A DNA stretch of 64,000 nucleotides from Acidobacteriota bacterium (GTDB lineage: Bacteria > Acidobacteriota > UBA890 > WLXD01), in contig CBDFKD010000002.1 in NCBI GenBank assembly GCA_965248695.1, forward strand, positions 2,720,001 through 2,784,000, in the 5' to 3' direction. The notes beneath the pieces are model-generated. The model saw only the letters and a list, made by a program, of their open reading frames with translations. It did not search any database and was not told the DNA's origin. Position numbers and translations under genes: made by a program. This document shows positions 7,991 to 59,748 of this stretch, piece after piece; position 1 is the stretch's first letter, and every line of letters begins with the position of its first letter.

Positions 7991-8452
7991 CGTCGCAACT
8001 CGAAACCGGCTGAAGTCCTGCGCGCTATGTATATGCCAGATTGGCCATGAAATATCGTTCCGGGTGCGATACTCGACTGTAGCCTCCGCGCTGTTGAACG
8101 ACAAGCCCACAAAGCGAATGTCCAGTGCCTCAAGATCACGGGCTACATCCGCCCAGACGGGCAACGTCTCGTGGCAGAACTGACAAGTCACCGTGAGAAA
8201 CGCTAGGATCCCGCCTTCTTCGCCAAGCATGGTGGCTACCGTGATCGGCTGGTCTTTATCAACCGCAACGAGCGCATCTCCGGCGTCAGCCAGCCCGTCC
8301 CCGATGGCGTACCCATCGATAGCGGGTCTTTCCGGGTTCCGCGAGGCGAGAGCTGCTCGCAGCTGGCGATTCTGTTCGATCAGTGCCCAACCACTGACCG
8401 CGACACCGACGGCGACTAGAAAGAGGCCAATCGTCGCCGCCCAAGGTGGCAC
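7990..8452 (-). pseudogene. TlpA/redoxin-like membrane-anchored thioredoxin-fold protein, 3' end replaced by the sulfatase fragment
   Basis: N-terminal TM helix, TCQFC CxxC motif, VGLSFN. Confidence 0.6.
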
Positions 8453-8484
8453 CAGCGGCGAGGCTGGTCTGCGGGCTACCGACG

Positions 8485-10705: not shown

Positions 10706-10958
10706 TGCCTGAACCCGCATCTGTTCCTGTCGATCGAAGATGCGCGTCAGAAGCTCAAGGCCTGGAGGATCGACTACAACGACCAACGACCCCACAGCTC
10801 CCTGGCCGACCGAACTCCTACGGAGTTCGCCAGGGGCTGGCAGCTGAGGGCCGCGGAAGCGCCGAGTGTCCACCTCTGACTGGGTCAGAAACCGGGGGCA
10901 GGTCAGAGCCTCAAATCCTAACTCTCAGACTGGCCCGACTATTGGCGGGCAGGTCAAC
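10706..10958 (+). mobile_element. IS3-family 3' fragment followed by two tandem right ends (..GGCAGGTCA)
   Basis: WRIDYNDQRPHSSL tail homologous to ~4800-4920; GGGGGCAGGTCA near 10904 and GGGCAGGTCA near 10956. Confidence 0.75.
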
Positions 10959-11096
10959 GACGTATCAAAGCTGCTCGGGTCGAGCGAGGACCACTTTCCA
11001 GTTGAGTTTGAGCCGCGTGCGGAAACGCTTGCCACCGGGGACTTGGCGTCCGGTCTGGTGCTCGGACAAAGTGTAGATATCTCGCATGCAGGTCAC

Positions 11097-12560
11097 CTAG
11101 CGTATATACCCGAGCGCGCGTAGTTGCTCTAGCAACGTTTCGTTCAGTTTTACGCTTCTGTCGCGCCCGCTGCGACCTTTGGTGACTGTGTCGTCCGTGA
11201 TCTCATGCAGTTGCGCATGCATTTGATAGGAGAGATCGCGATTTATATAGTGCACATCGGTAGTTTCACCGGGATCGAGTTCAAGTTGGTAAAGTTCCGT
11301 GTGACCGGTTCCGATGTCCGTCCAAATTTTCCACGGCCAGGCGATTGCTGCCTTTTTCTCAGTGCCATACAGCGTGCCCTCGGCTACGAGGAACCGGTCG
11401 AAGAAGCTTGACGAAGCACCAGGGGAACGCGGCCCCTTGGTGAGTACCGGCCAAAGCGAAACGCCGGCGCTACAGCCCCAGCGATGGCGGCCTCGCTGTG
11501 CTGCGCGCGCGCATGTTCTACCGTTAGGCAATGAGAACGCAGCTGCTTCAAGTAACGTCGGGAAGATATCGAGAGTCGTCACCGGCAGCGCATAGCGTCC
11601 AGGCTCTATTCTTGGCCCCCATACGATAAACGGAACCCGCAGCAGTTCATTGAACATCGTGTTCCCGTGTCCAATGCCGCTGTTGTGGTCGTTGAACGAT
11701 TCGCCGTGATCAGAGGTAACAATAACGATTGATCGGTCCCACAATTCCTGCTCTTCTAACGCAACGAAAAAGCGTTCGAGTTCGTAATCAGTGAACGCGA
11801 TTTCCTCATCGTAACGATCCAGGACTTCACGTACACTGCCTTGTTCAACGTTTTCCATAAAGCGGCCGAAGAACGGCGGTGGCGCCTTATAGGGCTCGTG
11901 CGGATCGATGAGGTGAACAACAAGAAAGAAGGGCTGCTGCGTGTCTTTGCGGGCCTCAAGCCAGTCAATCGCGAGATTCACAGTGGTATCGGCAGTGCGC
12001 GAGTTCGGTGCCTTGGCAAAAAAGTTGTAGTGGTCAAAGCCCTTTTCGAAACCAAATTCCGGCGCTAAGAAAGTATTGCTAACGATAGCTGTTGCAGCGT
12101 AGCCGACACTACGTAAAATTTGTGCGCTCGTAGGCAACCCCGGATCGAGCTTGACAAATAACTTGTTGCCTTTTCTTAGTAAGTCATCAACCTCAAGTTT
12201 GAGGGCATCAACCTCATTTGGCCTTGAGTTGGTCATGCCGTGAGCGACGATACCCGCGCCATGTCGTGTCGGTAGATGACCGGTGAACATCGAGCCCATT
12301 GCGGGCGCTGTCCATGACGAGGACGAAAACGCACGCTCAAACACAGCCGCATTACGCGCGCGCTCATCAAGGAAGGGCGAGGTAGGTCGTTCGTAACCGT
12401 AGGTGCCGAGGTGGTCGGCACGTAGCGTGTCAACGACGATCAGAATGATGGCAGGACGGTCGTCGCCAATTTCACCACCGCAGGTAGCGAGTGCGAGGCC
12501 TAATATCGCAGTCGCTATCAGCAAGAGTAAGCAACTGCCTAAGGTCAGGGATTTTCTCAC
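11097..12560 (-). CDS. Sulfatase-family hydrolase
   Basis: IILIVVDTLRADHLG, SSSSWTAPA, HLIDPHEPY, TSDHGE, C-terminal QLRALGYI; N-terminal signal/TM. Confidence 0.9.
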   Translation of the reverse strand: MRKSLTLGSCLLLLIATAILGLALATCGGEIGDDRPAIILIVVDTLRADHLGTYGYERPTSPFLDERARNAAVFERAFSSSSWTAPAMGSMFTGHLPTRHGAGIVAHGMTNSRPNEVDALKLEVDDLLRKGNKLFVKLDPGLPTSAQILRSVGYAATAIVSNTFLAPEFGFEKGFDHYNFFAKAPNSRTADTTVNLAIDWLEARKDTQQPFFLVVHLIDPHEPYKAPPPFFGRFMENVEQGSVREVLDRYDEEIAFTDYELERFFVALEEQELWDRSIVIVTSDHGESFNDHNSGIGHGNTMFNELLRVPFIVWGPRIEPGRYALPVTTLDIFPTLLEAAAFSLPNGRTCARAAQRGRHRWGCSAGVSLWPVLTKGPRSPGASSSFFDRFLVAEGTLYGTEKKAAIAWPWKIWTDIGTGHTELYQLELDPGETTDVHYINRDLSYQMHAQLHEITDDTVTKGRSGRDRSVKLNETLLEQLRALGYIR

Positions 12561-12663
12561 GTTGTAATATCCAGTGTATTGGAGAGGGGCGGTTACGAGA
12601 AGATGTTCAACCCTGACCTGCCCCCGGTTTCTGACCCAGTCAGAGGTGGACACTCGGCGCTTC

Positions 12664-13790
12664 TGACCTGCCCCCCAAAGCTGGACACATCAAAACGAGA
12701 AAATCTCGGGGTATGAGTGCTCATCCTTCGGCAACCTGTTGGAGCTGTTGGACATACACAGCCGGAGCTAGATATCCCAAGGAAGAATGCGGTCTCGTTT
12801 CGTTGTACTCCCGGCGCCACCCCTCCAGCTGTTCCTGGGCCTCAGAGAGGCTCAGGAACCAGCTCTGGCTCAGACACTCGTCCCTGAGTTTGCCGTTGAA
12901 GCTCTCGATCCATGCATTCTCCACCGGCTTGCCCGGCCGGATGAACTCTAGCTGCACGCCGTGGCGGTACGCCCACGAGTCCATCGCCTGGGAGTAGAAC
13001 TCCGAGCCGTTGTCGACGGTGATGATCCTCGGTAGCGACCGCTGCAGCGAGAGCCGCTCGAGCACCTGCGCGACCCGCTGCCCGGTCATTGACACCCCGG
13101 CCTCCAGCACGGGGCACTCGTGGCTGAAGTGGTCCACGACCGTCAGCACCCGGAAGTAGCGGCCACTGTCCAGTCGGTCCGTGATGAAGTCCATGCTCCA
13201 GCGCTCGTTCGGCGCACTGGCGGCCGGCAGCGATACCCGCGTGTGGCTCGCCCGCTTGCGGCGGCGTTTCACCCGGATCGACAGCTCCTCCTGCCGATAC
13301 AGTCGGTAGATGCGCTTGTGGTTCACCTGCCAGCCTTCTCGTCTCAACATCACCCACAATCGTCGGTATCCGAACCGCGGTCTCGCCGCCGCGAGCTCTC
13401 GGAGCCGCTTCCGGAGCACTGGATCATCCTGCTTGCGGCTCTGGTACCGATGGCTCGAACGTCCGAACCGGATCAGCCTGCACGCTCGCCTCTCGCTGAT
13501 CTCGAATGCCTCTCTGAGGCATCTCACGAGCCGGCGTTTGCGTACAGCTGCCGCAGCTCTGCCACGCCCATGCCGGCGAACTTCCGCCGCCACGCGTAGA
13601 ACGTCTGCGGCGCCACCCCCATCTTCCGGCAGATCTCCCGCACCGGCGTCCCCGCCTCCGCCTGCCTCAGCGCGTACGCGATCTGCTCGTCCGTGTACCT
13701 CTTCTTCTTCATCCGTCCTCCCGGTTCGAGGACTACGGTACACGCCGATGTGTCAACCTCCACCCGGACCAGTTTTCGGGGTTTGGGTCA
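12664..13790 (-). mobile_element. IS3-family element with internally deleted OrfA (OrfB ~13545-12721)
   Basis: Ends TGACCTGCCCC and GGGTTTGGGTCA; MKKKRYTDEQIAYALRQAE; [30 protein letters not shown]. Confidence 0.9.
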
Positions 13791-14077
13791 GTTTGGTCAC
13801 GTGCACCGGGGAGTGTCGGGACACTGTGCCGTCAGCCAGTTCGCCTTTTGCCGATATTTAGACTCTACTGCTCTCCAATCGGGCTGTGCCAGCGGCCTTC
13901 GACTCGCGCTTGCCTAACATTTTACTACAGTTGGCAACCTTTCGTTACTCCACGTGTCGAACCTGCTCGGTCCGGCGATAGGGAGATTTTCGTCGGGGGG
14001 GGGGGGACGAATCACTCTTCCGCCGCGAGACACCGATCTGCCAGATTCTCGGACCCTGATAACTCCATAGCTGCTGG

Positions 14078-15037
14078 TCAGAAGTGATACTTCATGTTAA
14101 GGCTGATTCCCCAGAACTGAATGTCACGCGTCTTTACATAGTAGGTAACGGGGACCGGCGGGTTACCGGCTACCGACGCATGATCGCGGAGAGAATCATA
14201 TGCTGACTCGCCATCGAATTCACGGAAACTCGCCCATCGGAACTTGAGCCCGAGGGTGACCAGATCGTTGACCGGATAATCCAGGCCCGCCACCGCCTGG
14301 TAGCCGAGCAGCGGATCCGACAATTTAGCTCTGTCAGTAGTGATCGTGCCGGCAATTTCCCGGTTTAACGCCTGGGCTGTCGCCAGCGCATCACCACTCA
14401 ACCCCTCGGTATCGAATACCGTGATGTTCTCGGGGTCACTCGTCCGGTGCCAGAGAGTCCGGTACGCAAGCGAGACTTTCGCAAAGCCGACTCCAATCCC
14501 CAGATACGGCGTAAACTTCGAATCAGAGCGAAAGTCGTAGTACATGTTGGCAAAAACGTTGTGCGACAATACGTCATCGACTCCATCCATGACAGTCTGG
14601 AATCCCGGATCCGTGCCGGGGTTATAGTTTGTTGCGGAATCATAGGGAACATCCGTGCTCTCATGGGTTGCGCTGCGATAGAAATATTCGCCCTCCGCCC
14701 TGAAGTTCCCCAAGCGATACCCCAAGGCCAAACCAGCCAGGATTCCCCTGCCGCCATCAAACGACTCGTCCATAGGGCCCCAAGCTGAGGGGGCATTGCC
14801 ACATGCTCCTTCTTCTACCTGAAAACCGTCTGGGTTTATGGTCTTGTCGCATCGGATCGCTGAATGCGCCGCATCCGCACTTGATACCCAATCATCCAGT
14901 CCCCCGGTCTTCACGTCCATTTCCGGAGCTACCGCAACCCCCAGGTCAATCCCCATGTACCAGCCGTCCTGGGCCAACACCGGGCCGGAGGAGACCACCA
15001 AAGCGATCACCAGGAGGACGAGCAAGAGTTTCTTCAT
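14078..15037 (-). CDS. Outer-membrane beta-barrel protein (opacity/OmpA-like porin family)
   Basis: Signal peptide, GWYMGIDLG, FRAEGEY, FTPYLGIGVG, terminal Phe (MKYHF). Confidence 0.8.
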   Translation of the reverse strand: MKKLLLVLLVIALVVSSGPVLAQDGWYMGIDLGVAVAPEMDVKTGGLDDWVSSADAAHSAIRCDKTINPDGFQVEEGACGNAPSAWGPMDESFDGGRGILAGLALGYRLGNFRAEGEYFYRSATHESTDVPYDSATNYNPGTDPGFQTVMDGVDDVLSHNVFANMYYDFRSDSKFTPYLGIGVGFAKVSLAYRTLWHRTSDPENITVFDTEGLSGDALATAQALNREIAGTITTDRAKLSDPLLGYQAVAGLDYPVNDLVTLGLKFRWASFREFDGESAYDSLRDHASVAGNPPVPVTYYVKTRDIQFWGISLNMKYHF

Positions 15038-15145
15038 GATGCCACCCCTCTTTACTTTTCGATTCGGAATTTCCTAGTTTAAGGTCTTTACTAGCTGTCT
15101 TCCCATCGGGTCTATTCGATCTCGTACTGAGACGAAAACCTTATT

Positions 15146-15481
15146 GGCTTAGAGGACAGAAAGTCGATGGACATCGTAGAGATCTTCGAGCGGTTCCCAA
15201 CCCAGGAAGATTGCATCGCTCATATGGAGCATTCCCGCTGGGGCAACAAGCCCGTCTGCCCCTATTGTGGCTCTCTCAACACCGCTCCCTGCGAGCATCG
15301 GCACCGCTGCTACGACTGCATCACTTCGTTCAGCGTAACTGTCGGCACGATCTTCCACCACACGCACTTGCCGCTTCAGAAGTGGTTCCTGGCGATCATG
15401 CTCATGCTGAACGACAAGAAAGGGCTCTCGGCACTTCAGCTGTCCCGCGATCTGAACGTGAACAAAAACACTGCTTGGCGC
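15146..15481 (+). mobile_element. IS1595-family transposase N-terminal fragment, cut by IS3
   Basis: RWGNKPVCPYCG...CYDC zinc ribbon, TVGTIFHHTHLPLQKWF, KKGLSALQL. Confidence 0.85.
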
Positions 15482-18112
15482 TGACCTGACCCCCGAAAAC
15501 GGATCCGGATGTAATCTCACGATCTGGGTCAAGAACGGGAGGTCAGAATGCCGAGTAAGAGGCACAGCGCCGAGCAGATCGTACGCAAGCTCCGGGAGGC
15601 TGAGGTGGAGCTGGCTCGAGGGGCGACGGTCAAGGATGCCTGCCGCAAGCTAGCAATCACCGAGCACACCTACTACCGGTGGCGGCGAGAGTACGGCGGA
15701 CTGAAGCTCAACCAGGCCAGAAAGCTCAAGCAACTGGAGAAGGAGAATGCCCGGCTCAAGAGGCTGGTGGCGGAAAAGGAACTCGACCTGTCGATCCTGA
15801 AGGAAGTGGCGGAGGGAAACTTCTGAGCCCAGCTCGGCGGCGAGAGGCGGTGGCACATGTACGGGGGCGGCTGGGCGTCTCGGAGAGGCGGGCGTGTCGG
15901 GTACTGAAACAACCACGCACGACACACCGGTACGTGCCAAGAGAGCCGCAACAGGAGCAGATTTTGACGGAGCGGATCGTGGATTTAGCCCGACAGTACG
16001 GGCGCTACGGATATCGGAGGGTGACAGCGTTGCTGCGCATGGAGGGCTGGTCCGTGAACCACAAACGAGTGCAGCGTATCTGGCGGCGCGAAGGGCTGAA
16101 AGTACCGAGAAAACAGCCCAAACGAGCACGGCTGTGGCTGAGCGATGGCTCCTGCATCCGGCTGCGCCCACAGCACCGGGATCATGTCTGGGCGTATGAC
16201 TTCCTGCACCACCGGACGCACGACGGTCGGGCTATGAGGCTGCTGACGATCGTCGATGAGTACACACGAGAAAGCCTGGCGATCCATGTAGCGGATGTGC
16301 CCCGAATGTCGTGGAAATTGGATGAGCGTCTCCTCCGCGACGACGGATGATCCTATCGGTTAGGCGGCCTGTTTGTCGGGGCCGCACGTGAGCTGAGCCA
16401 AGAACCGGTGGCCATCGATGCGTCGCATGCGGATCTGGCCGAAGGCGACCAGGCTCCACAGCAACGTCACCCCAGCGGCCTCGGTCGAGAACGAGCCCTG
16501 CGTCTTGGTACGACGACGGAACTCCCGGTTCAGGTTCTCGAGGGCGTTGGTGGTGCGCAGCGTCTTCCACATCGGCTTCGGGAACTGGTAGAAAGTCAGC
16601 AGGTTCAAGCCGGCCTCCTGCAGGCTCCGGGCCACGGCGGGCACGAGGGTCGACCACTTGCGTACGAAGGCGGCGTAGGCGGCTCTGGCCTGGTTGCCGT
16701 CATCGGCCCGGACGATCGCATCCCAGTCCCGCTTCATCTCCGCACGTGCATGAACCGGGCAGTGGTCGCGTAAGTTGCTCCACTTGTGTTGTGTGCACCG
16801 CTGCACCGACACATCGGGCCATACCTCGATCGCCTTGGCCAGGCCCTTGTGGCCGTCGGCGATCAGCACCTCCGGCGCCTGCAGCCCTCGTCTCACCAGC
16901 GACTCGATCAGTCCTTGCCAGTGCACCGCTGCCTCCGAGACCGCCAACTGCAACGCTACCAACACCTTCTGGCCGTCGGGCTGGACCCCGAGCACCGCCA
17001 GTACCGGCGCCGACACGACCCGCCTCGCCAGCCTGACCTTCAGATGGAACCCGTCCAAATACAGGATCCAGTACCGCTCGCCTGACACATCTCGCTGTCT
17101 CCAGCGCTCGAAGTACGCCTTCAGGCGCCCCACCACCCTGGAGATCGTGCTCTTGGTCAGGTGCGCCTTGCCCAGCAGCGGAGAGAGCGCCTTGCGGATC
17201 CGCCGGGTGTTGGCTCCCGCCAGGTATGCTCCCAGGATCGCCTCGTCCACCTGCCGGGCTCGCCGTGCGTACCGTGGCAGGATCGCGCTGCGGAACTCTC
17301 GGGTGCTGCCGTCTTGCCCCACGATGCGCCCCCGCGGTATGTCCAGCTCCTGGAGCCCTTGGGCTGTCGTCACCCGACGCCTTTGGCTGCCGTTGCGGTA
17401 GCCTCGCCGCTGCCCGTTGCGCTCGTATCGGTCGCAACCCAGCGCCTCGGTGAGCTCCTCGTCAAGCGTCATCTGGATCGCCTCGCGGATCCTGGTGCGC
17501 AACAGCGCCTGTACGTCCTGCCGGAACTCGACGAGCCCGGTTCCCTCCGTGCTAACCTGCTTCACGGCGTAGCCTCCTGCCGCTCGTGGCGGCTTTGTGT
17601 TTTTCCTACTCGGAGGTTACGCCATCTTTATTTCCACAGGACTCGGGCCGGATCCCATGTAGCACGGAAGCTCAACTCTGAGGACGTGCTGGAGCAGCTC
17701 GGGAGGTTGTTCGTACACCGGGGCATACCTGAGCACATCCGGTCGGATAACGGACCAGAGTTCACCGCCGAGGCGGTTCGCGACTGGCTGGGCCGGTTGG
17801 GCGTGGGGACGCTGTTCATCGAGCCGGGCTCGCCGTGGGAGAACGGTTACGTGGAGAGCTTCAACGGCAAGCTACGCGACGAGCTGCTGGATGGAGAGAT
17901 CTTCTACACGCTCAAGGAGGCAAAGGTTCTGATCGAGAGATGGCGTCAGCACTACAACCGCATGCGACCGCACAGCTCGCTGAGCTATCGGCCGCCCGCA
18001 CCCGAAGCGACGTTGTTGAAGCCGGCTGCGCTCCGCTTCGCCGGCCTCAACAACCTCTTGTCAGCACCGAGTTACTGAGATAAGACATGGTACTAACCGC
18101 GGGGTCAGGTCA
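15482..18112 (+). mobile_element. IS3-family element (OrfA 15548-15826; OrfB split by IS256)
   Basis: TIR TGACCTGACCCC / GGGGTCAGGTCA; G-GGA-AAC slippery site near 15814; YGYRR, WAYDF, IRSDNGPEF, ESFNGKLRDE. Confidence 0.92.
16293..17655 (-). mobile_element. IS256-family element (transposase 17565-16360)
   Basis: LYLDGFHLK, IADGHKGL, QRCTQH, TTNALENLNREF; TIRs beginning GGAT; 8-bp TSD CATGTAGC at 16285-16292 and 17656-17663. Confidence 0.93.
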
Positions 18113-18399
18113 TGACGGCCAAGGCTGCTGCCAAAGACAAGATGAAGGGGCGGCACATGCGCGCCTTTGTGCGGGAGCGAATTGACACGTCCAAGGCCAG
18201 CCTGATCCGGAGAGGGAGACGGAAACGGGGACGCGGAAAGGGATCGGGACGTCAGCGACAGCATCGCCCTGGCGATCCGTGGAGGCAAGATCCGGTTCGA
18301 TAGCGTCGATGTCGCCGGCTTCGGCTTCGAGGGAGACCTAGCGTTCGACGAGTACATGCCCCTCGAGGACTGGCGTTACGAGGAGCGATCGCCGGGGTA

Positions 18400-19030
18400 G
18401 TGTGCGACGATACCCTTCCCGGTTCGCGATCTCGTCGTTCCGACCGGTCATCTCCCAGCGAATCAGGGAGATCGGGATCATTCCGGAGCTCCAGAACGCG
18501 TCCATGAAGTCTCGCAAGACGAAGTCGTCGCCGAGCTCGTGGCCGCGCTCCTGGATCAGCCCGTTGATCTGCTGCTTGCCGAGCACCATGCCGGTGTGCC
18601 AACCCGGGGTGCGTAGCGTGGTCTCCATCTCGAACCAGACTTCGTGGCCCCCTTCCACCATCCAGCTGTACGGAGTCTGCTCGTAGCAGAAGCGATTCGC
18701 CTCCGGGAGGGTGAGCTCGTTGGCGTGCATCTTCAGGTCCGCCATGGCGCGTACCGACCGGAACGCGGTGGCGATGTGGACAAGCTCGCGAACGCGGGGG
18801 AACGCGTCGAGCAATCCGACGTTCATGAGCAGCTCCTCGAGGGCGAACGCCTGGCCCTCGGAGCGCACCATGTCGATCTCGAACAGGCGCGCCTGCCCGC
18901 GCAGCGGTCGGTCGTCGTGCCGTCGCCGGAGCTCGTCGAGATTGTGTCCGAGCATGTTGTGGGCCAGCTCGGGTAAGGGGTTGCGGTCACGGTGCTGCTC
19001 GAAGAAATCGGCGACGCCGCCCGGATTGTC
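18400..19030 (-). pseudogene. DUF885-like protein C-terminal fragment
   Basis: EGQAFALEE, RAMADLKMH, GDDFVLRDFMDAF..GMIPISL. Confidence 0.6.
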
Positions 19031-19034
19031 GGGC

Positions 19035-19820
19035 GAGGTAACGGTCCAACCGCGCAACAAGGGCGTCACCAACATCGTGCTCGCGAGTCTGGATGAAGAG
19101 ATCGAAGTGAAAGCAGGACAAACCGTTGAGCTGTTCGTCAACTACACCGACCCCAACAACAAGGACGCCCACATCGGGGGCGCGGAGATGATCGTCCCCA
19201 TAGCGGGGACCGATTACACGGCCTGGGACGGTGCCGACGGCGCGGGCAGTCTCATTACCTCCCAGGTTGACCTGTCGAGCACGGAGTTTTCCGGCTCCGA
19301 CTGCAAGATCGTGGCCACCAACAATGCGGCCACGACGGGTTATCTACGCGGCCCCGGCGCCGTGGCCGGCATGCAGGTACGGGGCAGGCCGCTGTATCGG
19401 TACTCTCCCGTATCACGCCGCGGCAAAGGCTCGGCCGACAGCATCACTGACTACGGGGAGCGGTGGTTGCGCATCGACATGCCCTATCAGGACAACGTGG
19501 AGGTGGCGCAAGACGTGGCGAACTTCATCGCCAATCTCCACGACGGGATCCTCAATATCCCGACCGAGGTGGCGCCGATGACCGAGAGGCCGGAGGTGTT
19601 GGCCTCGTGTCTGTCGGTGGATATCGGCTCCAGGGTCAAGGTAACCGAGCAGGAGTCTGGGGTGGATGGCGCGGAATTGTTCGTCAACGGCCTCCGTGGC
19701 CGGGTGCTCAACAACGTCGTGAGCTTGGAGTGGATCGTGGCGCCGGCTGATACGACGGCCGTGTTCATTCTGGATGATCCGGTGGCCGGGATCCTGGACG
19801 CCAACGCACTGGGGTACTGA
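19035..19820 (+). CDS. Phage tail protein, C-terminal fragment
   Basis: DSITDYGERWLRIDMPY..DIGSRVKV..FILDDPVAGILDANALGY resembles siphovirus tail/baseplate C-termini; 5' end lost at a junction. Confidence 0.6.
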   Translation, partial: EVTVQPRNKGVTNIVLASLDEEIEVKAGQTVELFVNYTDPNNKDAHIGGAEMIVPIAGTDYTAWDGADGAGSLITSQVDLSSTEFSGSDCKIVATNNAATTGYLRGPGAVAGMQVRGRPLYRYSPVSRRGKGSADSITDYGERWLRIDMPYQDNVEVAQDVANFIANLHDGILNIPTEVAPMTERPEVLASCLSVDIGSRVKVTEQESGVDGAELFVNGLRGRVLNNVVSLEWIVAPADTTAVFILDDPVAGILDANALGY

Positions 19821-25840: not shown

Positions 25841-25882
25841 TATAATGTATTCACTATACCGACGTATAATAAATAGTCAAGC
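25841..25882 (-). promoter_or_regulatory. Sigma70-like promoter for the radC operon with overlapping palindrome
   Basis: TTGACT-16 nt-TATAGT on the minus strand; palindrome TATAC-GTCG-GTATA overlaps the -10. Confidence 0.6.
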
Positions 25883-25948
25883 TAGAAATGGTGGATTCTC
25901 AAGAAAACAGGCGCGCATACCGCTGCCCTTACGAGCGGCGGGGTCAGG

Positions 25949-26179
25949 TCAGGACAGGCCGGACTCGAGCAACGCGCCGGCTCCTGCCGCCGTTGTGATG
26001 CCGTTCGGGGCGCAGCCTGGTGCCAATCCGGCAGGCCTACCCAGCAGAGCTTTGAGTTCCACCAACGACACGTCTGACGTGTCTGCAGTTTCTGTGGGCT
26101 TCCCCTTGGGCGTTGACGCCACGGCAGGGATCGCCGCCACCGCCATCACCACGGTGAGCGCGAGAATCCGTCTTAGCAT
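25949..26179 (-). CDS. Small secreted cargo protein
   Basis: GGAGGA RBS, signal peptide MLRRILALTVVMAVAAIPAVA. Confidence 0.5.
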   Translation of the reverse strand: MLRRILALTVVMAVAAIPAVASTPKGKPTETADTSDVSLVELKALLGRPAGLAPGCAPNGITTAAGAGALLESGLS

Positions 26180-26191
26180 GAAATTCCTCCC

Positions 26192-26419
26192 GGTTCATCG
26201 GTCCAGGTGGGGTTGTGGGCACGTACGCTCTTCATCGTCTGAACGTTCATGGGCTGTTCCCTCCTCACGGCAGCGACCTTGCCATCCACCTCACCTCGCC
26301 CACGAGCACCGCATCGTCAGGCCAGGGCTCAGCGGTCCAGGTGGGGTTATCGCTGACCAGCAGCCAGTCACGCCTGCCTTTGGCGGCGCGCTTCGCGTTC
26401 ATGCTGCCGCTGCCGTGAG
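26192..26419 (-). repeat. Relic cI S24 3'-end copies R3 (~26265-26410) and R4 (26192-26215), plus a duplicated start of the 28592 gene
   Basis: Translates AKRAAKGRRDWLLVSDNPTWTAEPWPDDAVLVGEVRWMARSLP*; 26215-26309 matches 28556-28651 with one indel. Confidence 0.85.
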
Positions 26420-26670
26420 ACCAGAACGTATCCAAGCGCGGTGTTGAAAGCTACGAGGAACCCGACGCCGGCACTAAACAAATTGCCGTTGGGTGCGAGC
26501 AGTTGTGCAATGGCTATCGTGGTGCAGGCAAGAAACAAGGACCCATGAAGTACGCGGAGCCAGTATGGATTCCGCGCGAGCCACTGGAACGAGCTGGTCG
26601 CCAGGTACAAAGCTGCGGGCAAAAGCACCGCGAAGCTCATCAATATTGCGACTGCGAACCAGTCGTTCAT
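26368..26670 (-). CDS. Three-TM membrane cargo protein
   Basis: Hydrophobic helices; lower GC than the phage backbone. Confidence 0.55.
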   Translation of the reverse strand: MNDWFAVAILMSFAVLLPAALYLATSSFQWLARNPYWLRVLHGSLFLACTTIAIAQLLAPNGNLFSAGVGFLVAFNTALGYVLVSRQRQHEREARRQRQA

Positions 26671-26738
26671 TCGGTATCGGCTGGCAAAGTTAGTCGCTGC
26701 GCCCTGGCCGCAGGTGCGCAGTTCGTTTCTCTCCCTAG

Positions 26739-27233
26739 CTATTCCCGATCATCGCCTACCGTAGCTTGGGGGGAGGAAGGTGCATCCACAGCCGCTTCAG
26801 TGGCTGGCGGTTCCTTGAGCGGCGTTTCGACTGAGATCGGCTTTGTCTGCGGTGCACCACCCTCATTCCGGCGCATCAGCACCAGCAGGACAACACCGAT
26901 CAAGATCAGCGCGGGTACATCGCCGATAAGGTTGGCCGACTCCGCAGGGTCGTTGAGTGCCTGCCAGGCCATCAGTAGTCCATGTGCCAAGCTTGACCAC
27001 GCGGCAAAAGCGATCAGGCTGGTGTGCTCGGTCGGGTTTCGCGACGCCCTAAGCAAGAATACGCCCAGCACCGCGAATGTAAGGAGGATCATCTGTTCGT
27101 ACTCGGCCTGGCGAGGCTCCCACATGAACCCTGCCGGCCAAACGACCGTGAGCGGATACAGCCCGACGATAAAGATAACTCCGACGACCGTGAGTACTAT
27201 GCTCAATGTTGATCGCTGACTGCCGATAGCCAT
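26739..27233 (-). CDS. DUF6632-like membrane protein (cargo)
   Basis: WPAGFMW..YEQMIL..LGVFLLRASRNP..HTSLIAFAAWSSLAHG; GGAGG RBS. Confidence 0.7.
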   Translation of the reverse strand: MAIGSQRSTLSIVLTVVGVIFIVGLYPLTVVWPAGFMWEPRQAEYEQMILLTFAVLGVFLLRASRNPTEHTSLIAFAAWSSLAHGLLMAWQALNDPAESANLIGDVPALILIGVVLLVLMRRNEGGAPQTKPISVETPLKEPPATEAAVDAPSSPQATVGDDRE

Positions 27234-27409
27234 CTCTCTGCCTCCATTGCTGCTAGCTACTAGCCGATACAGAACAGGATCCGATAGTTGCCAACTCGTA
27301 GTTGCCGATACGTACTGCTGGTCAACTGGTGTTGTTGTCGAGTCTGTAGCCTCCCTATTCGTTCACCGATCCTCGGGGTGAGGTCAGCCAGTAGAGTGTA
27401 GAGTCTCCT

Positions 27410-28159
27410 CTAGCCGCCCGATCTCCCTTCAGGACCTCGACGCGGTCGCTCTCGACGCAGCAGCTTGAGCAGGTACCGATCGGGTTCTTCGACCTCGTTC
27501 AGGTGCCGGCGCGCTTTCCTTGCGAAGCGTTCAGCATCCTCATTGGTCCACTGTCGATTTGCCCCGCGCCCGTGTCGATTCGCCTCTCCGCGCCAGATGG
27601 TCAGCGCCGCGTAGCCCCAGAGACCAGCGATTGCAGAGCGAACCTCATCCACGAAAATGACGTCTGGATTCTGCTCCAAGAATCTCTCAAACCGACAAGC
27701 TTCGTCGATGAGCACTCGCACGGGCTTTCCGTCGCTTTCGATGTACTCCCCCTCCCAGACCAGCCTCTTCCACCTAAACCACGGAACGTGCTTGCCGTCA
27801 GGGAACTCCTCCAGGTACCCATCAATGAGTCGAAGATGGGGCGTGCGGTCCTTCCAGCCATGAACGAGCCCCTGGACATCTAGCGCCTTCTTGTAGGCGT
27901 CTTCCCGGTCCGAGATGGCCTCCACGGTCGCTATGGCCTCGGAATTCTCCGCTGCCATTAGCTGCACCGTTTCTGCTGACATCGGCCACGGGTTGGCCAG
28001 AAGGTCAGCCGTCAGGCGCTTCATTTCCTCCACGCTCCTCGCAAGAGCATCCTCACCGGCGGGTGGTGCCTGGGCGGGCGCGAGCATGGCTGCGAGGACC
28101 AGGCAGATCGACACTGCCCGAACGGGCGTGGTGGACAACAGCTCTCGTAGGTTTGCCAT
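27410..28159 (-). CDS. Hypothetical exported helical (TPR-like) cargo protein
   Basis: Signal-like segment; YLEEFPDG and FLEQNPD TPR/BamD-like motifs. Confidence 0.55.
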   Translation of the reverse strand: MANLRELLSTTPVRAVSICLVLAAMLAPAQAPPAGEDALARSVEEMKRLTADLLANPWPMSAETVQLMAAENSEAIATVEAISDREDAYKKALDVQGLVHGWKDRTPHLRLIDGYLEEFPDGKHVPWFRWKRLVWEGEYIESDGKPVRVLIDEACRFERFLEQNPDVIFVDEVRSAIAGLWGYAALTIWRGEANRHGRGANRQWTNEDAERFARKARRHLNEVEEPDRYLLKLLRRERPRRGPEGRSGG

Positions 28160-28191
28160 TACATCCTCGCTGCTAGATAGCGGGCCCTTTC

Positions 28192-28350
28192 TCACGGCAG
28201 CGTCCTCGCCATCCACCTCACCTCGCCCACTAGCACCGCATCGTCAGGCCAGGGCTGCTCGTTGGTCCAGGTGGGGTTGTCGCTGACCAGCAGCCAGGTG
28301 TGGTTGGGGCCCTTGGCGGCGCGCTTCACGACCAAGCTCTCGTCTTTGAG
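28192..28350 (-). repeat. Relic cI S24 3'-end copy R2
   Basis: DESLVVKRAAKGPNHTWLLVSDNPTWTNEQPWPDDAVLVGEVRWMARTLP*. Confidence 0.85.
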
Positions 28351-28592
28351 CTTACGCGGGGCCATCTCTTTGCGATCCGGTGTCGGGCCTTCTGACCGCC
28401 GACATAACTCTCGACGTAGCCGCAAGCGACGCAGACGTAGTTGTCCAGCGCAACGCTCCCAAAGTACAGCCCACCGATTGGGATGGTGTTCGAGCCCATA
28501 GTCCCGGTCTTGCTAAAGACGTTCGCGCCACTGTGCACCTCTTCGGAACCGCAACGTGGGCACGTACCGCTCTTCATCGTCTGAACGTTCAT
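28326..28592 (-). CDS. Small zinc-ribbon cargo protein
   Basis: MKSGTCPRCGS...YVCVACGYVESY; GGAGGG RBS directly after the relic stop. Confidence 0.75.
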   Translation of the reverse strand: MNVQTMKSGTCPRCGSEEVHSGANVFSKTGTMGSNTIPIGGLYFGSVALDNYVCVACGYVESYVGGQKARHRIAKRWPRVSSKTRAWS

Positions 28593-28606
28593 GGGCTGTT
28601 CCCTCC

Positions 28607-28680
28607 TCACGGCAGCGACCTTGCCATCCACCTCACCTCGCCCACGAGCACGGCGTCGTCGGGCGAAGGGATTGGGTGGG
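28607..28680 (-). repeat. Relic cI S24 3'-end copy R1, immediately after the resident cI stop
   Basis: PDDAVLVGEVRWMARSLP*. Confidence 0.85.
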
Positions 28681-28681
28681 C

Positions 28682-29536
28682 TCACAGCAGTATCTTCCCC
28701 GTCCAAGCGACCTGCCCGAGGATCTTGGCTTCCCGTGGCAGGCCTAGGGTCGGGTACTCGGACTTGTCCGGGTTGTCACTGGCGAGCGCCCAGGCTCCCT
28801 GATCGTTCCGCATCAGCCGCTTGACGACGCTGCCGTCCTCGGTCCACACGGCGAAGATGCGGTCATGGATCAGAGTGGTGCGCCGATGATCGACCAGGAT
28901 CATCGCTCCGTCCTCGATGCCCGGCACCATCGACTCACCCCATACCTCGAAGGCGTTGCAGTGCTCGGGAAACAGCCCGTGCCGGTTCGACCACACCGTC
29001 GGGAAGGCGATGTAGCCGGTGACCTTCTCGGTGATGAAGGCTCCCGCGCCAGCGGCAATGCCAACGTCGCCGCGTCTCGGGAAGACGCTGAAGTCGTGCT
29101 CGAAGGTGGCCAGACGGGGGTTGCCAGCGTAGTCCTCAGGGAGAGGGATGGGGGCGACGTTGCCGTCCGAGAGGTCGTCGGCGGGCGGCGGCAGGCGCGA
29201 GAGGATGTCGGCGTACTGCGCGTGCAGTTCCTCGCGTAGCGCTTCGGTCTTGGCTCGCAGCGCCGCCAGCTCGTCGCGGCTCGGTTCGTCGCTGGCGTCA
29301 CTATCGCGCGCCTCCAGCTGCGGCTCGGAGCCGTTGCGCGGCGGGCCGACGTAGAACTCCAGGCCCAGGGCGTCGCAGAGGGCCTGAATAGTCGATCCAC
29401 GGAGATCCAGTCCACGTTTCAAGCTCCGGACGGCGCTTTCGTGCCCCACTGCCGCGATAGATACCTCCCTGGCAGAACGGTTGCTTCGCTCCAGGGCTGC
29501 CAGGATTTCAGCGGGGTACTTAGCCGAGTAGGTCAT
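28682..29536 (-). CDS. Phage CI-like repressor (HTH plus S24 autopeptidase)
   Basis: N-terminal HTH, AAGAG cleavage site, GESM (Ser) and VVKRL (Lys), SDNP; divergent from the cro-like gene. Confidence 0.9.
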   Translation of the reverse strand: MTYSAKYPAEILAALERSNRSAREVSIAAVGHESAVRSLKRGLDLRGSTIQALCDALGLEFYVGPPRNGSEPQLEARDSDASDEPSRDELAALRAKTEALREELHAQYADILSRLPPPADDLSDGNVAPIPLPEDYAGNPRLATFEHDFSVFPRRGDVGIAAGAGAFITEKVTGYIAFPTVWSNRHGLFPEHCNAFEVWGESMVPGIEDGAMILVDHRRTTLIHDRIFAVWTEDGSVVKRLMRNDQGAWALASDNPDKSEYPTLGLPREAKILGQVAWTGKILL

Positions 29537-29613
29537 ACGGTCCCTACCTATACCACTAATTTTTGCATCGGGCTTCACTCGACTTCGGGGTTTTATGCCC
29601 TATTCTCTGGGGC

Positions 29614-29868
29614 ATGAACTCCCTAGAAGCGAATCTCGTTGCACTCGCCGAAACCTACGCCTCGCACCGAAGTGTGACCTTGTGGAGGGTCGGTCACCAG
29701 GCAGCGAACCGTGGGTCGTTCTTCGTCGATCTGAAAGGCCAGAAGCGCCACTGCCAGACCAATACGTATAGCCGCGTTCTCCAGTGGTTCTCAGACCACT
29801 GGCCGGCCGACCTGGAATGGCCGGCGGAGATCCAGCGCCCGGAGCCGCGGCAGGGAGAGGCGGCGTGA
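29614..29868 (+). CDS. Cro-like phage regulator
   Basis: Divergent from cI; LAETYA..GSFF..LQWFSDHWPADLEWP. Confidence 0.75.
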   Translation: MNSLEANLVALAETYASHRSVTLWRVGHQAANRGSFFVDLKGQKRHCQTNTYSRVLQWFSDHWPADLEWPAEIQRPEPRQGEAA

Positions 29869-30012
29869 GCGGTGCGCGGCTTCGCGATCGTCGTTTGCTC
29901 GCAGTTTTCGGCCGATGGGTCTGGAGAGCGATCTGCTGGAAGCGCCGTCTTCACGGTCGCGTCGAGCGAGCACTCGGGATCTACGAACTACGGCGCTCTC
30001 GGCGCGACACCC

Positions 30013-30387: not shown

Positions 30388-30570
30388 GTGGCCCCGATCA
30401 CGATGACCTACGAGCTGGCCATGGGTGCGAGCAAGGACGCAGCTAACCAGAGCATGGGCGCGGCGGGCCGCTCCAAGTGGAGCCGACAGGACTACAGCGT
30501 CGCCGTCGAGACGTTTGAGCGCCTGTGGCCATTGGAGGCGGATCTGCGCAGCCAAGGAGAGATGGCGTGA
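30388..30570 (+). CDS. Small phage early protein
   Basis: AAGGAGGTG RBS; TYELAMGASKDAANQSM..WSRQDY. Confidence 0.65.
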   Translation: MAPITMTYELAMGASKDAANQSMGAAGRSKWSRQDYSVAVETFERLWPLEADLRSQGEMA

Positions 30571-30587
30571 GCGTGGAGGTGCGGCGG

Positions 30588-31266
30588 CTAGTCGACCTCG
30601 CCGGCGGCGGCAGCGCGCTGTTCGTGCGCCAGCTTGACTCGCTCCGGCAGCGTGAAGGTGTAGAGCAAAAACAGCTCGGCGAAGCTCTGAATCTGCTTCG
30701 CGCTCATTTCGTCGAACGTTTCCTCGTGCGCCGCTTTGTTTCCCTGGAGGCGAATGATGTGCGCCAAAGACTTCATTGCCGGAGTGATCTCGTGCCGTTT
30801 GGCGAGGGCGTCGATACGTTTCACGAGCTGCATCTTTTTGAAGTCCGCACCTTCAGGCGGCGATCTCCGTGGTGGCCCACTCCAGAACCTTGCGGAACAT
30901 TATGCCGGCGCTTGTGAAGTGCTGGCGACGCAGGTTGTCGGCCGCCTCCTTGTAGTCGTTCGCGATGCCATCGGGCACATGCTCGGGCACGTCGATTGGC
31001 TGCGGCTTCGGGTGTATGGCAATCAGTTCGAACTCATGGTCTTGCGGATCTCCTGAATAATTGCCTGGACTACTTTCCTTCGGGCCCTTGAACTTAACGG
31101 CGACACCTTCTTGACACTTACGGCATACGAACAAGGTGTTCCACTCCCTCAGGCGACGATTCGATTGCTCCTCCAGCGAGACAGGTGGGCACTCGAGCTG
31201 ACCGCCGAACATGAACCCCGTGCGCTCCGATGCACAGTGGGGGCAGTCTAGGACCATTTCAGGCAT
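30588..31266 (-). CDS. DUF4145 (HEPN-like) protein with N-terminal zinc ribbon; single frameshift near 30860
   Basis: CPHC..CRKC, YKEA...AGIMFRKVLE, IRLQGNKAAH (RxxxNxxxH). Confidence 0.8.
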
Positions 31267-31641
31267 GTCGAACCTCTCACCGCATATCAGGGAGCTGAAT
31301 AAAACGCTGGCCCCGGAGTACGGCCCGGAGACACCGAGCGAGGCCGTGAGCCGGCTGCTCGAACACTACCAGCGGCTCGATGAGCAGGGCCAGCTCGCGT
31401 TCGTGGCGGCGCTGATTGGTGACGCCGTGACGCAGCGAATGATCGCGCGCCCGGAGCCGCGGCAGGGAGAGGCGGCATGAGCGACACCGCCCAGGTCGAC
31501 GTATCCGTGCATTCCGAACCGCTGCTTACTGCGCTGTCACGGCTTACCGAGCTTGCGAAAGGCTTTCCGGAGCTTGTCGATCGCCTTATCGACCTTACGC
31601 ATCTCTCGCCGGAGTTGCTCGGCACGGTAGTGCGTGACGAG

Positions 31642-34386
31642 TGCGTATTTCGGTGATGCCGAATCGGTTGTTTCGGTCATCGCGATCACTCGTTTCGGGT
31701 GATCGCGATCAGGGCATCGGAGCGAAGCGACGTTGTGTTGGGATGTTAGCGGATCACCTTGGGTGAGTCAGAAGTAGTAGTAGAGGCGGTGGAGGCTGTG
31801 GGGGACGCGAAGCGTCCTCCAAGGAGCGGTGGGAAACGGATGTTTTCCATGGCTCCGGCAGGATCCACAGGTTGCCGGAGCAGCGCGAGGATGCTCATGT
31901 GGCTTTGTCCGCATCGCGCAGCTTGGCGGCGGCGGCCGCCTTGCGCAGCGACCGGCCGGTGAGCTTGATCTTGTAGGCAGCGTGGATGAGCCGGTCGCAG
32001 ATGGAGTCGGCCACGGTGGCCTCCCCGAGTGCCTGATGCCAGGCAGAGATGGGCAACTGACTGGCGATCAGAGTCGAGGCGCGTTCATGGCGATCTTCGA
32101 TCACCTCGAGGATGTCGCGCCGTTCCATGTCGTTGAGCGGCGTAAGCAACCAGTCATCGATCACCAACAAGTTGGTTCTGGCGAGTCGGTTCATCAGACG
32201 GGTGTAGGAGCCGTCGCCACGGGCGACGGCGAGTTGGTGAGGGAACCGGGCGGCGCGCACGTACAATGCCGTGAACCCAGATCGGCACGCCCTGTGCGCC
32301 AGTGCGCAGGCCAGGAACGTCTTGCCGGTGCCGGTGGGTCCGGTGATCAGCAGGTTCAGGTTCTGGCGCAACCACTCACACGATCCCAGCGACAGCACCA
32401 CCTGCCGGTCCAGCCCGCGGGATGCCTTGAAGTCGACATCTTCCATGCAAGCGGCGACGCGGAGTTTGGCGCGTTGGAGCCGGCGAGTGAGCTTACGCCG
32501 CTCGCGTGCGGTGTACTCGGCCTCGATCATCATGCCGACCCGATCCTCGAACGGTAGATCGGCGTACTGGCTCGTGGACAGCTGCAACTCGAACAGCTCG
32601 GCCATCGCCCCCATCTTCATGGCCAGCATCTTGTCGATCGTCGGTTGCCTCAGCATGAGCTGGACTCGGCGTAGTAATCAGCACCGCGGATGTTCTCGTG
32701 GACTGGCACTGCGGGAGTTCGGTGCTGTTGCGCGGGCTGCCGATCCAGGCCCGAGGAGAGGATGTTCTTGATCGTGCCGTAACGGCACGATCCGAGGGTC
32801 TCGGCGCGCGCGCTCGCTGCCTCCAGTCGTTCCGATCCGTAGCGCTTGCTCAAGCGCATGATCCCCAAACAGGAGCGATACCCCTGTTCCGGATGAGGGA
32901 AGGTGGCCATGATCTGCGCCACCACCCGAGCGGTGGCAGGACCGGTGCGCCCGGCCCAGCCGATCAGACGCGACGGGGTGCATTGCGCATGCGCCCGATG
33001 CGAAGCGGGCATGTGCTCGGCACAAGTGGAGTGGCTGCCTTTGCCCACGAGACGGCGGTGGCCGCCAACTCGGTTGCCCTTGAAGTACAGCTCCACGGTC
33101 AGAGCGGTGAAGCGTGCCTCCACCTGCTGATGAACCAACTGATAGGGCACCGAGTACCAGTTGCCGTCAACCTGCACGTGGTAGTCGATGTTGACCGTGC
33201 AGCGGAGCCACTCGGCCATCTCATAGGCGGCTGACGGCAACGGCTGCAGCAGTGGCCGGTCCAGACGCTCGTACAACTGTCGTCGGGATGCGCCGAGCTG
33301 CTGCATGGGCTTGTCGTTGATGATCTCGAGTTGCTCGCGGATCGCACCGTTCAGCTCGGCCAAGCTGAAGAAGGTGCGGTTGCGCAATACGGCCAGGATC
33401 CAACGCTGCGCCAGTAGCACGGAGCTCTCCACCTTGGCCTTGTCGCGAGGCTTGCCGGCGCGCGTCGGGATCACCGCCGCACCGTAGTGCTCGGCCATCT
33501 CGGCGTAGCTGCGGTTCACGGTCGGCTCATACCGGCAGGCCCGAGTAACGCCGCTCTTGAGGTTGTCCGGAACGAGGATCTCAGCACTCCCGCCGAAGTA
33601 CTCCAACATCCGCACATGCGATCCGATCCACGAGGCCAGATCCTGGCCAGCGCTTGCCTCGGCGTACACGTAGGAGCTGGCGCCGAGCACCCCGACGAAC
33701 AACTCGACGGTACGGGCATCACCGCTGTGGCGGTCAACGACGCTCGGTCGCTTGCCGGAGTAGTCCACGAAGATCTTGTGGCCGGCGCGGTGCACCTGCC
33801 GCATCGATGGGGACAGCTTGCGCCGGAAGCGTCGGTATCGCTCGCAGAACTGCGTGTAGCGATATCCGTCAGGGTGATCCTCCAGGTACTCGTGCCACAG
33901 CAGTTGTAGCGTCACCCCGGGGCGCCGCAGCTCCCGGTGAACCCAGGCCACATCCGGCGACGGGCGCGGGTTGCTCGGTGGCGCCGGCGCTCTGAACAGC
34001 TTCCCCTCCAGCGCGATGTCATCAAGCTCTGCCGGCAGCGGCCAGCTCAGCCCGGCCGCCGCGGCGCGCTGCAGGTAGTCGCTCACGGTCGAACTGCTCA
34101 CGCCACACGCGCGGGCGATCTGGCGGTGCGGTAGCCCTTGGAACTTCAGCCGCAGGATCTGTCGAACTTGTCTCATCGGTAGCCTCTTGGTTGCCATCCA
34201 TCGCTCCTCCTGGCGTTAGGAGGCGCCATGGTGCCGCACTTGCTACCGATGGATCCCTGCTCTCAGATCCTCGCGATCGGCTCCGAAATGAGCGATCGCG
34301 ATGGTCCGAAACCAGTGATCGGCATCAACCGAAATCCGTGATCGCGATAAACCGAAACGGGCGATCGGGATGCTCCGAAATACGCA
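31642..34386 (-). mobile_element. IS21-family element: istA 34197-32650, istB 32656-31895
   Basis: TGCGTATTTCGG / CCGAAATACGCA ends with internal repeats; IstA FVDY, VPDN, PRDKAKVE; IstB GPTGTGKT, LLVIDD; no TSD visible. Confidence 0.95.
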
Positions 34387-34675: not shown

Positions 34676-34985
34676 CAGGACCGCACCGCCTGTAGCGGGA
34701 TCAGCTCCGCGTCGAACAGTTGGACGAACAGCTCCGCCTGACGCGACCACGGCTCGGGTATGTCATTGAAGTCCTTGGCATCGAACGCCGCGTGCATCGG
34801 ACAGTTGTCCCAGGTGTGGCAGTTCCAGACCTCGGGCGTGGCCACCGCTTCCAGAGGCTTGCCGCCGGCCGTCAGAAGTGCCGGTAGATCCGCTACGTAC
34901 TCCGACCACTTCTGCCCCGTCGGCATAGTCGTCTCGGCAGACAACTTGGCTCCCCGCAGGTTGGCTCCCCGCAGGTCGGCTCCCA
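34675..34985 (-). pseudogene. Pentapeptide-repeat protein C-terminal fragment
   Basis: GADLRGANLRGAKL plus a C-terminal domain almost identical to that at 56419-56650. Confidence 0.85.
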
Positions 34986-56287: not shown

Positions 56288-56396
56288 TTGCTGGCGCTCT
56301 CGGTGTCCTGCCAGGTTGGCTCCGCGCGCCAGGGTGCCGCTTCAATCTCCTCGGCGCGTTGGATGGCGGCGTCGCGCTCGCGTTGGGCGTAGCGGC

Positions 56397-57849: not shown

Positions 57850-57908
57850 GTTTTCCGGTCGGTGGCGGTCGTCACGTGGGGGCGGTTGGCATGCGGTCTG
57901 GCGGCTAG

Positions 57909-59726: not shown

Positions 59727-59748
59727 CGTTACGCCGCCTCGTTGACCG

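Follow-up and report, generated by a model that had tools for sequence, protein, structure and literature searches.

How does a phage repressor gene come to be followed by several 3′ ends of a different repressor gene, each with an unrelated gene behind it? This question is raised by a 64,000-nucleotide (nt) stretch of the genome of an Acidobacteriota bacterium (contig CBDFKD010000002.1, positions 2,720,001–2,784,000; the whole stretch is referred to below as the window, and position 1 is its first letter). On its minus strand the window carries a complete S24-type repressor gene and, behind it, four 3′-end relics of repressor genes (R1–R4) interleaved with cargo genes. Sequential displacement by one-sided illegitimate recombination, taking place in the leftward operon of the repressor in a Mu-like prophage now degraded, is considered the best explanation of this array and is given about an even chance of being correct. 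The features of the array and of its two neighbours are as follows.

29563–29868, plus strand: divergent early gene in the position of Mu ner, PHROG 7669 (E 7.7e-28)
28682–29578, minus strand: resident S24 (cI/LexA-type) repressor, an open reading frame (ORF) of 298 codons with a likely ATG start at 29536
28664–28681, minus strand: spacer of 18 nt between the resident stop codon and R1
28607–28663, minus strand: relic R1, the final 18 codons and stop codon of a different S24 repressor
28326–28592, minus strand: zinc-ribbon gene, an 88-amino-acid (aa) ORF with its ribosome-binding site (RBS) within the sequence trailing R1
28192–28344, minus strand: relic R2, the final 50 codons and stop codon of the other repressor type
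27410–28162, minus strand: 250-aa gene, with an N-terminal hydrophobic, signal-peptide-like segment, predicted to be helical, without a family match
26739–27233, minus strand: DUF6632 membrane gene, 164 aa (Pfam DUF6632, E 1.6e-31)
26368–26670, minus strand: 100-aa membrane gene with three hydrophobic segments, its 3′ end overlapping R3 in another frame
26265–26402, minus strand: relic R3, the final 45 codons and stop codon of the other repressor type, possibly extending to 26438
26215–26264, minus strand: zinc-ribbon stub of 50 nt (RBS and gene start), of which 39 nt are identical to 28568–28606 and the remaining 11 nt lie beyond a deletion of 1 nt
26192–26214, minus strand: relic R4, a piece of 8 internal codons belonging to the mid-tail, abutting the stub and the RBS of the next gene
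25949–26179, minus strand: 76-aa secreted-protein gene with an N-terminal signal-like segment
25367–25813, minus strand: RadC-like JAB-domain gene downstream of the array (Pfam RadC, E 2.8e-37)

The order of genes and relics given in a preliminary description of this DNA agrees with these ORF calls and coordinates. The same description had taken the relics to be C-terminal tails of S24 repressors, of a type unlike the resident tail, and both claims were borne out. R2 is colinear with residues 247–297 of the 298 residues of the resident repressor (BLASTP E 8e-7, 35% identity) and also matches the tail of the repressor of L001, a Mu-like prophage of another genome described below (E 6e-5). When the 56-aa R2 peptide was compared with Pfam, Peptidase_S24 (positions 74–110 of 116) was the only family found at E≤10, with an E-value of 0.05 that lies below the cut-off. 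R3 alone gave no Pfam match; it shares 82% protein identity with R2, from which it differs by two 3-nt insertions or deletions (indels). R1 and R4 were assigned as S24 tails only via their identity to R2 and R3. The relics are mutually 82–94% identical, whereas their identity to the resident tail is only 37%, and they stem from another S24 repressor type than the resident one.

Three copies of a 23-mer of the tail are present in the 64 kb, all of them within the array (none of 100 shuffles reached this number), and a mid-tail 15-mer is likewise found three times, compared with 0.14 expected. The 39-nt stretch comprising the RBS and start of the zinc-ribbon gene exists in two identical copies. 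The longest exact run shared within the array (84 nt; 28568–28651 and 26226–26309) joins R1 and the zinc-ribbon start on one side to R3 and the stub on the other, and these two segments are 95% identical over 102 nt. No further relic copies were detected elsewhere in the window by a permissive tblastn search. The possible extension of R3 to 26438 comes from a weak tblastn alignment (E 0.013), and an upstream extension of R1 to the resident stop codon was rejected, its score being reached by 728/2000 and 1096/2000 shuffles.

To which family does the resident repressor belong? The protein matches Pfam Peptidase_S24 (PF00717; residues 174–290, E 8.6e-18) and PHROG 4, a transcriptional repressor (E 6.7e-24). 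Its translation contains the motifs G-E-S-M and V-K-R, which mark the Ser-Lys catalytic dyad. No helix-turn-helix family was found in the Pfam search and a PDB sequence search gave no match; the N-terminal region is conserved in the repressors of L001 and of RS1 and vB_RhkS_P1, two isolated Mu-like phages. The resident repressor is 35% identical to that of the L001 prophage (E 8e-27), and local tblastn detected the repressors of the Rhodovulum phages vB_RhkS_P1 (E 3e-17) and RS1 (E 2e-12). The best-covering phage matches were the repressors of RC1 and RS1, Mu-like phages of Rhodobacter/Rhodovulum (27% identity over 72% of the query). The resident protein can be placed, by sequence similarity, in the repressor family of Mu-like phages. 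Its TGA stop codon is in frame with R1, and read-through would append 24 residues duplicating the last strand; this arrangement, with a chance of 1 in 3, is taken as a coincidence.

Is the layout confined to this window? Species-representative genomes were scanned with the peptide pattern LVGEVRWM, which matched 14 stretches, one of which (L001) was confirmed. L001 is a Mu-like prophage in a metagenome-assembled genome of the Pseudomonadales, with genes for Gam, GemA, Mor, an AAA+ B-like protein and the Mu I and T head proteins. Its S24 repressor gene (8318–9151) has a divergent neighbour of the PHROG 7669 type (tblastn E 3e-15) and is followed by a 274-codon ORF whose start overlaps the repressor stop codon and whose product has an N-terminal hydrophobic segment. 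The GC content of this cargo is approximately 0.59–0.62, in a background of 0.75–0.80 and next to a repressor gene of 0.72. Behind the cargo lies a relic (10001–10057) of 19 codons of the tail type of the window relics, ending in a stop codon, and a second copy of 24 nt (88% identity) is placed 154 nt further on; L001 contained no relics beyond this 24-nt copy. The L001 relic departs from the window relics by changes that are either synonymous or conservative and by a difference in length that keeps the frame. The order of repressor, foreign cargo and relic(s) is thus also present in a distant, independent genome. The L001 cargo shows no similarity to the 250-aa protein of the window (E 1.5).

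The isolated phages RS1 and vB_RhkS_P1 each carry one hypothetical gene 12–18 nt behind the repressor gene, towards the genome end; therefore, the slot behind the repressor is a normal place for cargo. Relic tails were found in neither of these two phages. When positions 25900–29600 of the window were compared by blastn with phage and plasmid records, no match was obtained.

As a separate observation, the part of L001 that follows the relics (10212–19412) starts with an NYN/LOTUS-domain gene on the opposite strand, after which come Mu-type late genes (protease I, major head protein T, gp36, tail terminator and tape measure), without portal or terminase genes in between. This arrangement suggests that one Mu-like prophage lies against another that is truncated, or has inserted itself there.

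Did the relics diverge where they now lie, or earlier, as parts of working genes? In the last 19 codons R1–R3 vary at six sites, five of which are synonymous third-position differences and one a Ser/Thr exchange; synonymous changes make up 25% of all possible single-base changes in this stretch, and five of six gives P = 0.005. The two indels that separate R2 from R3 are of exactly 3 nt, and each is placed inside a cluster of amino-acid changes. Given this synonymous-rich tail and the two 3-nt indels, the relics diverged as working genes and not in place. At least two alleles that once functioned are their source: synonymous changes in a conserved core, together with in-frame indels in variable loops, are the pattern of diverging working alleles, not of decaying dead copies.

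The relics and the genes between them also differ in base composition. The GC content at third codon positions (GC3) is 0.83–0.89 in the relics (R3 0.83, R2 0.89), 0.80 in the resident repressor gene and 0.85 in the RadC-like gene, compared with 0.67–0.72 in the cargo (0.69 in the 250-aa gene, 0.67 in the DUF6632 gene and 0.68 in the 100-aa gene). The genes between the relics are compositionally foreign, and the relics are native-like.

At the junctions, the zinc-ribbon and 100-aa membrane ORFs run out of frame into the next relic for a few to approximately 20 codons, and the stub, with its 1-nt deletion, is joined to R4 through an overlap of about 2 nt. The left boundaries of the relics are unequal, with 18, at least 50, 43–57 and 8 internal codons retained in R1, R2, R3 and R4, respectively. 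In their sequence the junctions look like ordinary illegitimate joins, not like the products of one crossover site.

From the anatomy of the array, the S24 origin of the relics and their descent from several alleles, the contrast in composition and the second locus of the same layout, we infer the following mechanism and order of events. DNA of a related phage, carrying a repressor gene with its own downstream cargo, would recombine with the resident prophage (i) at one end by homologous recombination on the regulatory side and (ii) at the other by an illegitimate join within the last ~60 codons of the resident repressor gene. The old repressor gene would be lost except for its 3′ tail, and this tail, with its stop codon, the trailing RBS and the old cargo, would be displaced downstream. 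Repetition of such events would generate a series of repressor, cargo, tail, cargo and tail, in which the cargo consists of foreign “moron” genes. In the last event a repressor of another tail type would have arrived, leaving R1 behind. The run of 84 identical bases common to R1 and R3 makes it likely that tails later underwent homologous exchange with one another. Small-scale decay is likely too, the stub having lost 1 nt and R4 being truncated.

The preliminary description had proposed that repressor-plus-cargo modules repeatedly recombined into the cI 3′ end to form an integron-like array. The repeated recombination agrees with the S24 tails, the multiple alleles, the foreign cargo and the layout of L001, but the integron-like character could not be upheld (see below), and the age order that it read into the array found no support in this one genome. 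It had also regarded the array as the record of an immunity switch. The position of R1 directly behind the resident stop codon fits a replacement of the repressor; however, three or four successive switches are unneeded. As all relics share one tail type, only the last step, in which the resident repressor was placed over R1, would be a switch of type.

Several results weigh against sequential displacement. Over 43 aligned codons R2 and R3 show 4 synonymous and 8 non-synonymous codon differences, and their differences by codon position (5, 6 and 7) show no overall third-position excess; it is the conserved tail and the in-frame indels that carry the signal of selection. The 84 identical bases of R1/R3 and the zinc-ribbon starts could mean local duplication. 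The four junctions are all crowded into the final ~60 codons of a gene ~280–300 codons long, a distribution that random illegitimate joining would not lead one to expect; this clustering may be due to selection against fragments of the repressor that are longer, to trimming at a later time or to a hotspot. Relics are present in only two of the four examined loci of this repressor family. No intact repressor with the relic tail type was found, the sole confirmed match in the genome scan with its one peptide pattern being itself a relic, and a tblastn search with R2 (E up to 1) was without a match among 50,697 records of phages and 72,556 of plasmids.

Of the competing explanations, the one that survives best, although it is unlikely, is that the tail and zinc-ribbon unit was duplicated locally in a dying prophage, and that foreign DNA and deletions followed, without any repeated import of modules. 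The 84-nt identical run within 102 nt of 95% identity is what such a duplication would leave, and the surroundings are rich in insertion sequences (IS) and decaying (an IS21 pair, a frameshifted DUF4145 gene, IS3 and Mutator transposases). For R1 and R3 taken by themselves, either a local duplication or a later exchange between them may have produced the likeness. A duplication in place does not, however, account for the two in-frame indels between R2 and R3 and the mostly synonymous changes of the conserved tail, nor for R2 being trailed by a different gene with a different leader, and L001 has the layout independently.

It is rather improbable that the relics were instead retained for a function, as a cis-acting site, as a small peptide or as a recombination handle for cassette swaps comparable to orphan Rhs/CdiA modules. 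Such a role would be in keeping with a tail core that is recognisable across genomes of 63% and 77% GC, in which the full repressors are only 35% identical, and with the finding that the three longer relics are all open to the original stop codon, R2 and R3 having in-frame ATG codons. Yet these internal ATG codons are not preceded by a convincing Shine-Dalgarno sequence, and the relic and inter-cassette stretches gave no RNA structure signal (folding z-scores of -0.16 to -0.82 for the relic stretches and of -0.16 to -0.99 for the inter-cassette stretches, not beyond those of shuffles, and no att-like hairpin); searched with an E-value of up to 1, Rfam had no match for the relic stretches. The pieces R1 and R4 are short, with different boundaries, and RS1 and vB_RhkS_P1 carry their cargo without relics.

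An assembly artefact, in which alternative cargo alleles of co-occurring strains or phages had been strung together serially by the assembler, is slightly less probable still. The cassettes are separated by short, near-identical repeats (23–84 nt exact), at which bubbles of an assembly graph can be mis-threaded. Against this, longer and more nearly identical repeats were resolved in the same window (158 nt, 100%; 244 nt, 99%; 288-nt tandem units, 91–99%), no two of the four flanks of the 84-nt repeat are alike, the gene order that they give is consistent, and a comparable layout exists in L001, an independent assembly.

Integrons possess an intI integrase and attI/attC hairpin sites, and genomic islands accrete in tandem at the 3′ ends of tRNA genes. 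Like these, the array consists of ordered cassettes beside a fixed gene, separated by repeats of gene ends or recombination sites; unlike them, it has no integrase, no structured sites of the attI/attC type and no single crossover point. Site-specific capture of cassettes in the repressor tail, integron- or att-like and with a recombinase acting in trans, is the least probable of the four competing explanations: direct repeats of a gene 3′ end around inserted DNA are the classic signature of gene-end integration and R2 and R3 start at nearly the same codon, but the boundaries of R1 and R4 differ, attC-like hairpins were not seen, the stub–R4 join with its 2-nt overlap looks illegitimate, and no recombinase gene was found by Pfam and PHROG searches between positions 24 and 32 kb of the window, the nearest tyrosine recombinase gene (54620–55717) being placed in another phage-like region. 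The integron-like array of the preliminary description fails on the same grounds. A nested Mu transposition capturing an outer left end was rejected, since only 0–18 nt lie between cargo and relic, which leaves no room for an inner end.

Sequential displacement has a close parallel at toxin loci. In type VI secretion system (T6SS) arrays of V. cholerae, homology-facilitated illegitimate recombination is proposed to leave shifted 3′ ends and older partner genes, and Rhs loci are cited there in the same connection (PMC5361080). As in the Rhs/CdiA orphan and V. cholerae T6SS immunity arrays outlined there (PMC5361080), the array of the window has a full-length gene followed by 3′ fragments of its homologs, each with downstream partner genes. 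The fragments come from different alleles in both cases, which is less clear here for R1 and R3 owing to their 84-nt identity. The proposal outlined for the toxin loci is also the one made here: an incoming module is anchored by homology at one end and joined illegitimately at the opposite end, so that the newest module comes to lie beside the intact gene. In contrast to the Rhs/CdiA/T6SS arrays, the displaced gene in the window encodes a phage repressor and not a toxin, and its partners are unrelated cargo instead of cognate immunity genes; the element concerned is a Mu-like prophage, and relic arrays of this kind are known from two loci.

The cargo can also be compared with genes known from prophage repressor operons, of which rexAB of phage lambda, expressed in the lysogen, are an example. 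Three reports describe similar cases: genes 44 and 45 of epsilon34 are expressed in the lysogen and located downstream of the gene that encodes the prophage repressor (PMC2629481); in accessory regions of Pseudomonas Mu-like phages, the flanks of the variable regions have no common recombinase target (PMC4378225); and exclusion genes of Fc02 are part of the repressor transcript, being located upstream of the repressor gene (PMC9936078). The cargo of the window resembles the morons of epsilon34, the Pseudomonas Mu-like phages, Fc02 and lambda in its putative position in the repressor transcription unit and in a composition that deviates from the phage backbone. The descriptions of these morons report, in contrast to the array, no repeated 3′-end relics of a repressor gene between cargo genes. 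Full-text literature searches, in which supplements were not covered, found no description of repressor-tail relic arrays, and this absence is weakly founded. Both cargo behind prophage repressors and displacement arrays at toxin loci are already known.

A wider reading, which is put forward tentatively and seems more doubtful than sequential displacement in this window, is that recombinase-free stacking of lysogen-expressed cargo is recurrent in Mu-like temperate phages, with a break in the last strands of the old repressor at each replacement of the immunity module, survival of its tail, RBS and cargo further downstream, retained tails serving as homology handles and an ordered history of infections as the outcome. 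If the stacking took place, the array would be the phage counterpart of the Rhs/CdiA orphan arrays. If it is general, (i) it would explain how the slot for cargo that follows prophage repressors, in which genes for exclusion and conversion are known, comes to grow, (ii) relic repressor tails would be a simple sequence signature for spotting such cargo, and (iii) the principle of C-terminal displacement, established at toxin loci, would apply to the immunity regions of phages as well. How phages acquire accessory genes has been called “mysterious” (PMC4378225). Here, within a single window, the array is the scar of past evolution in a prophage that is dead, and no function is assigned to its cargo.

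What do the cargo genes encode? Hydrophobic segments, N-terminal or multiple, are present in four of the five complete cargo proteins. The zinc-ribbon protein has two CxxC pairs and resembles the Pfam families Zn_ribbon_13 (E 0.002) and Lar_restr_allev (E 0.003), neither of which reaches the cut-off; since look-alike clusters in the Atlas comprise 76–83 aa, its 88-aa ORF is nearly complete. A comparison of this protein with phage records gave no match. The 100-aa membrane protein is similar to DUF7549 (Pfam E 4e-4, below the cut-off). For the 250-aa protein, the AlphaFold2 model is helical with a mean predicted local distance difference test score of 54, and the nearest Atlas clusters are hypothetical proteins, most commonly from Acidobacteriota (score 0.95). 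Its earlier designation as “TPR-like” is without support, in view of this low-scoring model and of Pfam, PHROG and NCBIfam searches, which, like PADLOC, matched neither it nor the 76-aa protein. None of the window cargo was found in PHROGs or NCBIfam. The defence function suggested for the cargo likewise found no support in PADLOC, which matched none of the five window proteins; the one L001 cargo protein was not matched either.

As regards expression, all genes of the array are co-oriented, and a good RBS for the zinc-ribbon gene is present where the sequence continues behind R1. A scan of the array region for promoters and terminators revealed nothing above shuffles: a single promoter-like site (25853–25880; 10/12 positions matched) precedes the RadC-like gene and a single terminator-like site is placed inside the zinc-ribbon gene, neither in excess of shuffles. 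Of the features by which morons are recognised, the cargo thus has the deviant composition and lacks a recognisable promoter and terminator of its own. Co-transcription of the cargo with the repressor gene is possible and would be permitted by the layout. From the position of the cargo and the envelope localisation of its products, we infer expression together with the repressor and a role in exclusion or surface conversion that may have benefited the lysogen. Expression in a present-day lysogen is uncertain, the element being a degraded remnant.

The state of this element is apparent from its surroundings. The only Mu-type features of the window are the repressor gene and its PHROG 7669 neighbour, and no Mu transposase or late genes were recognised in it by Pfam, PHROG and NCBIfam searches. 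The early region is interrupted by an IS21-type IstA/IstB pair (31895–34197, minus strand), whose IstA has Mu-transposase C-terminal and rve domains and whose orientation is wrong for Mu A/B; a comparison of this IS21 region with plasmid records gave no match. A DUF4145/PHROG 1305 gene (30588–31266, minus strand) consists of two ORFs in different frames, of 137 and 81 aa (profile positions 17–137 and 146–219), and is likely a frameshifted pseudogene. Several IS3 and Mutator transposase genes flank the region. Taken together, the element appears to be a degraded remnant of a Mu-like prophage in an IS-rich region.

A repeated gene end was also detected on the other side of the repressor gene. 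The end of the PHROG 7669 gene (its last 12 codons, an RBS and an overlapping stop/start; 29829–29871) recurs 1.6 kb downstream at 31441–31483 (43 nt, 93% identity), where it forms the in-frame end of another ORF (31211–31480), and a shorter third copy is located at 30553–30573. These repeats are a scar of the kind seen downstream of the repressor gene, placed here at the opposite side of the immunity region, and they count in favour of sequential displacement.

A second phage-like module occupies positions 54620–62218 (minus strand). It encodes a tyrosine integrase, a DnaC/IstB-like ATPase, DUF1376 and AAA_24 proteins and a PD-(D/E)XK nuclease, and is without an S24 tail relic. A 300-nt direct repeat (90% identity) links the right-hand side of the IS21 element (34681–34980) with this module (56418–56717), where the second copy passes into a repeat with a period of 15 nt (56646–56900, 12 overlapping copies) of the sort seen in genes for pentapeptide-repeat proteins. 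Further direct repeats, several kb apart, adjoin IS3-type transposase genes (43448–43605/47086–47243, 158 nt, perfect; 47838–47983/53921–54066, 146 nt, 97%) and may be IS ends or miniature elements. At the edge of the window, tandem repeats with units of 288 nt (up to 99% identical) and ~330 nt, at 643–1653 and 1911–2838, probably belong to the gene of a repeat-domain protein.

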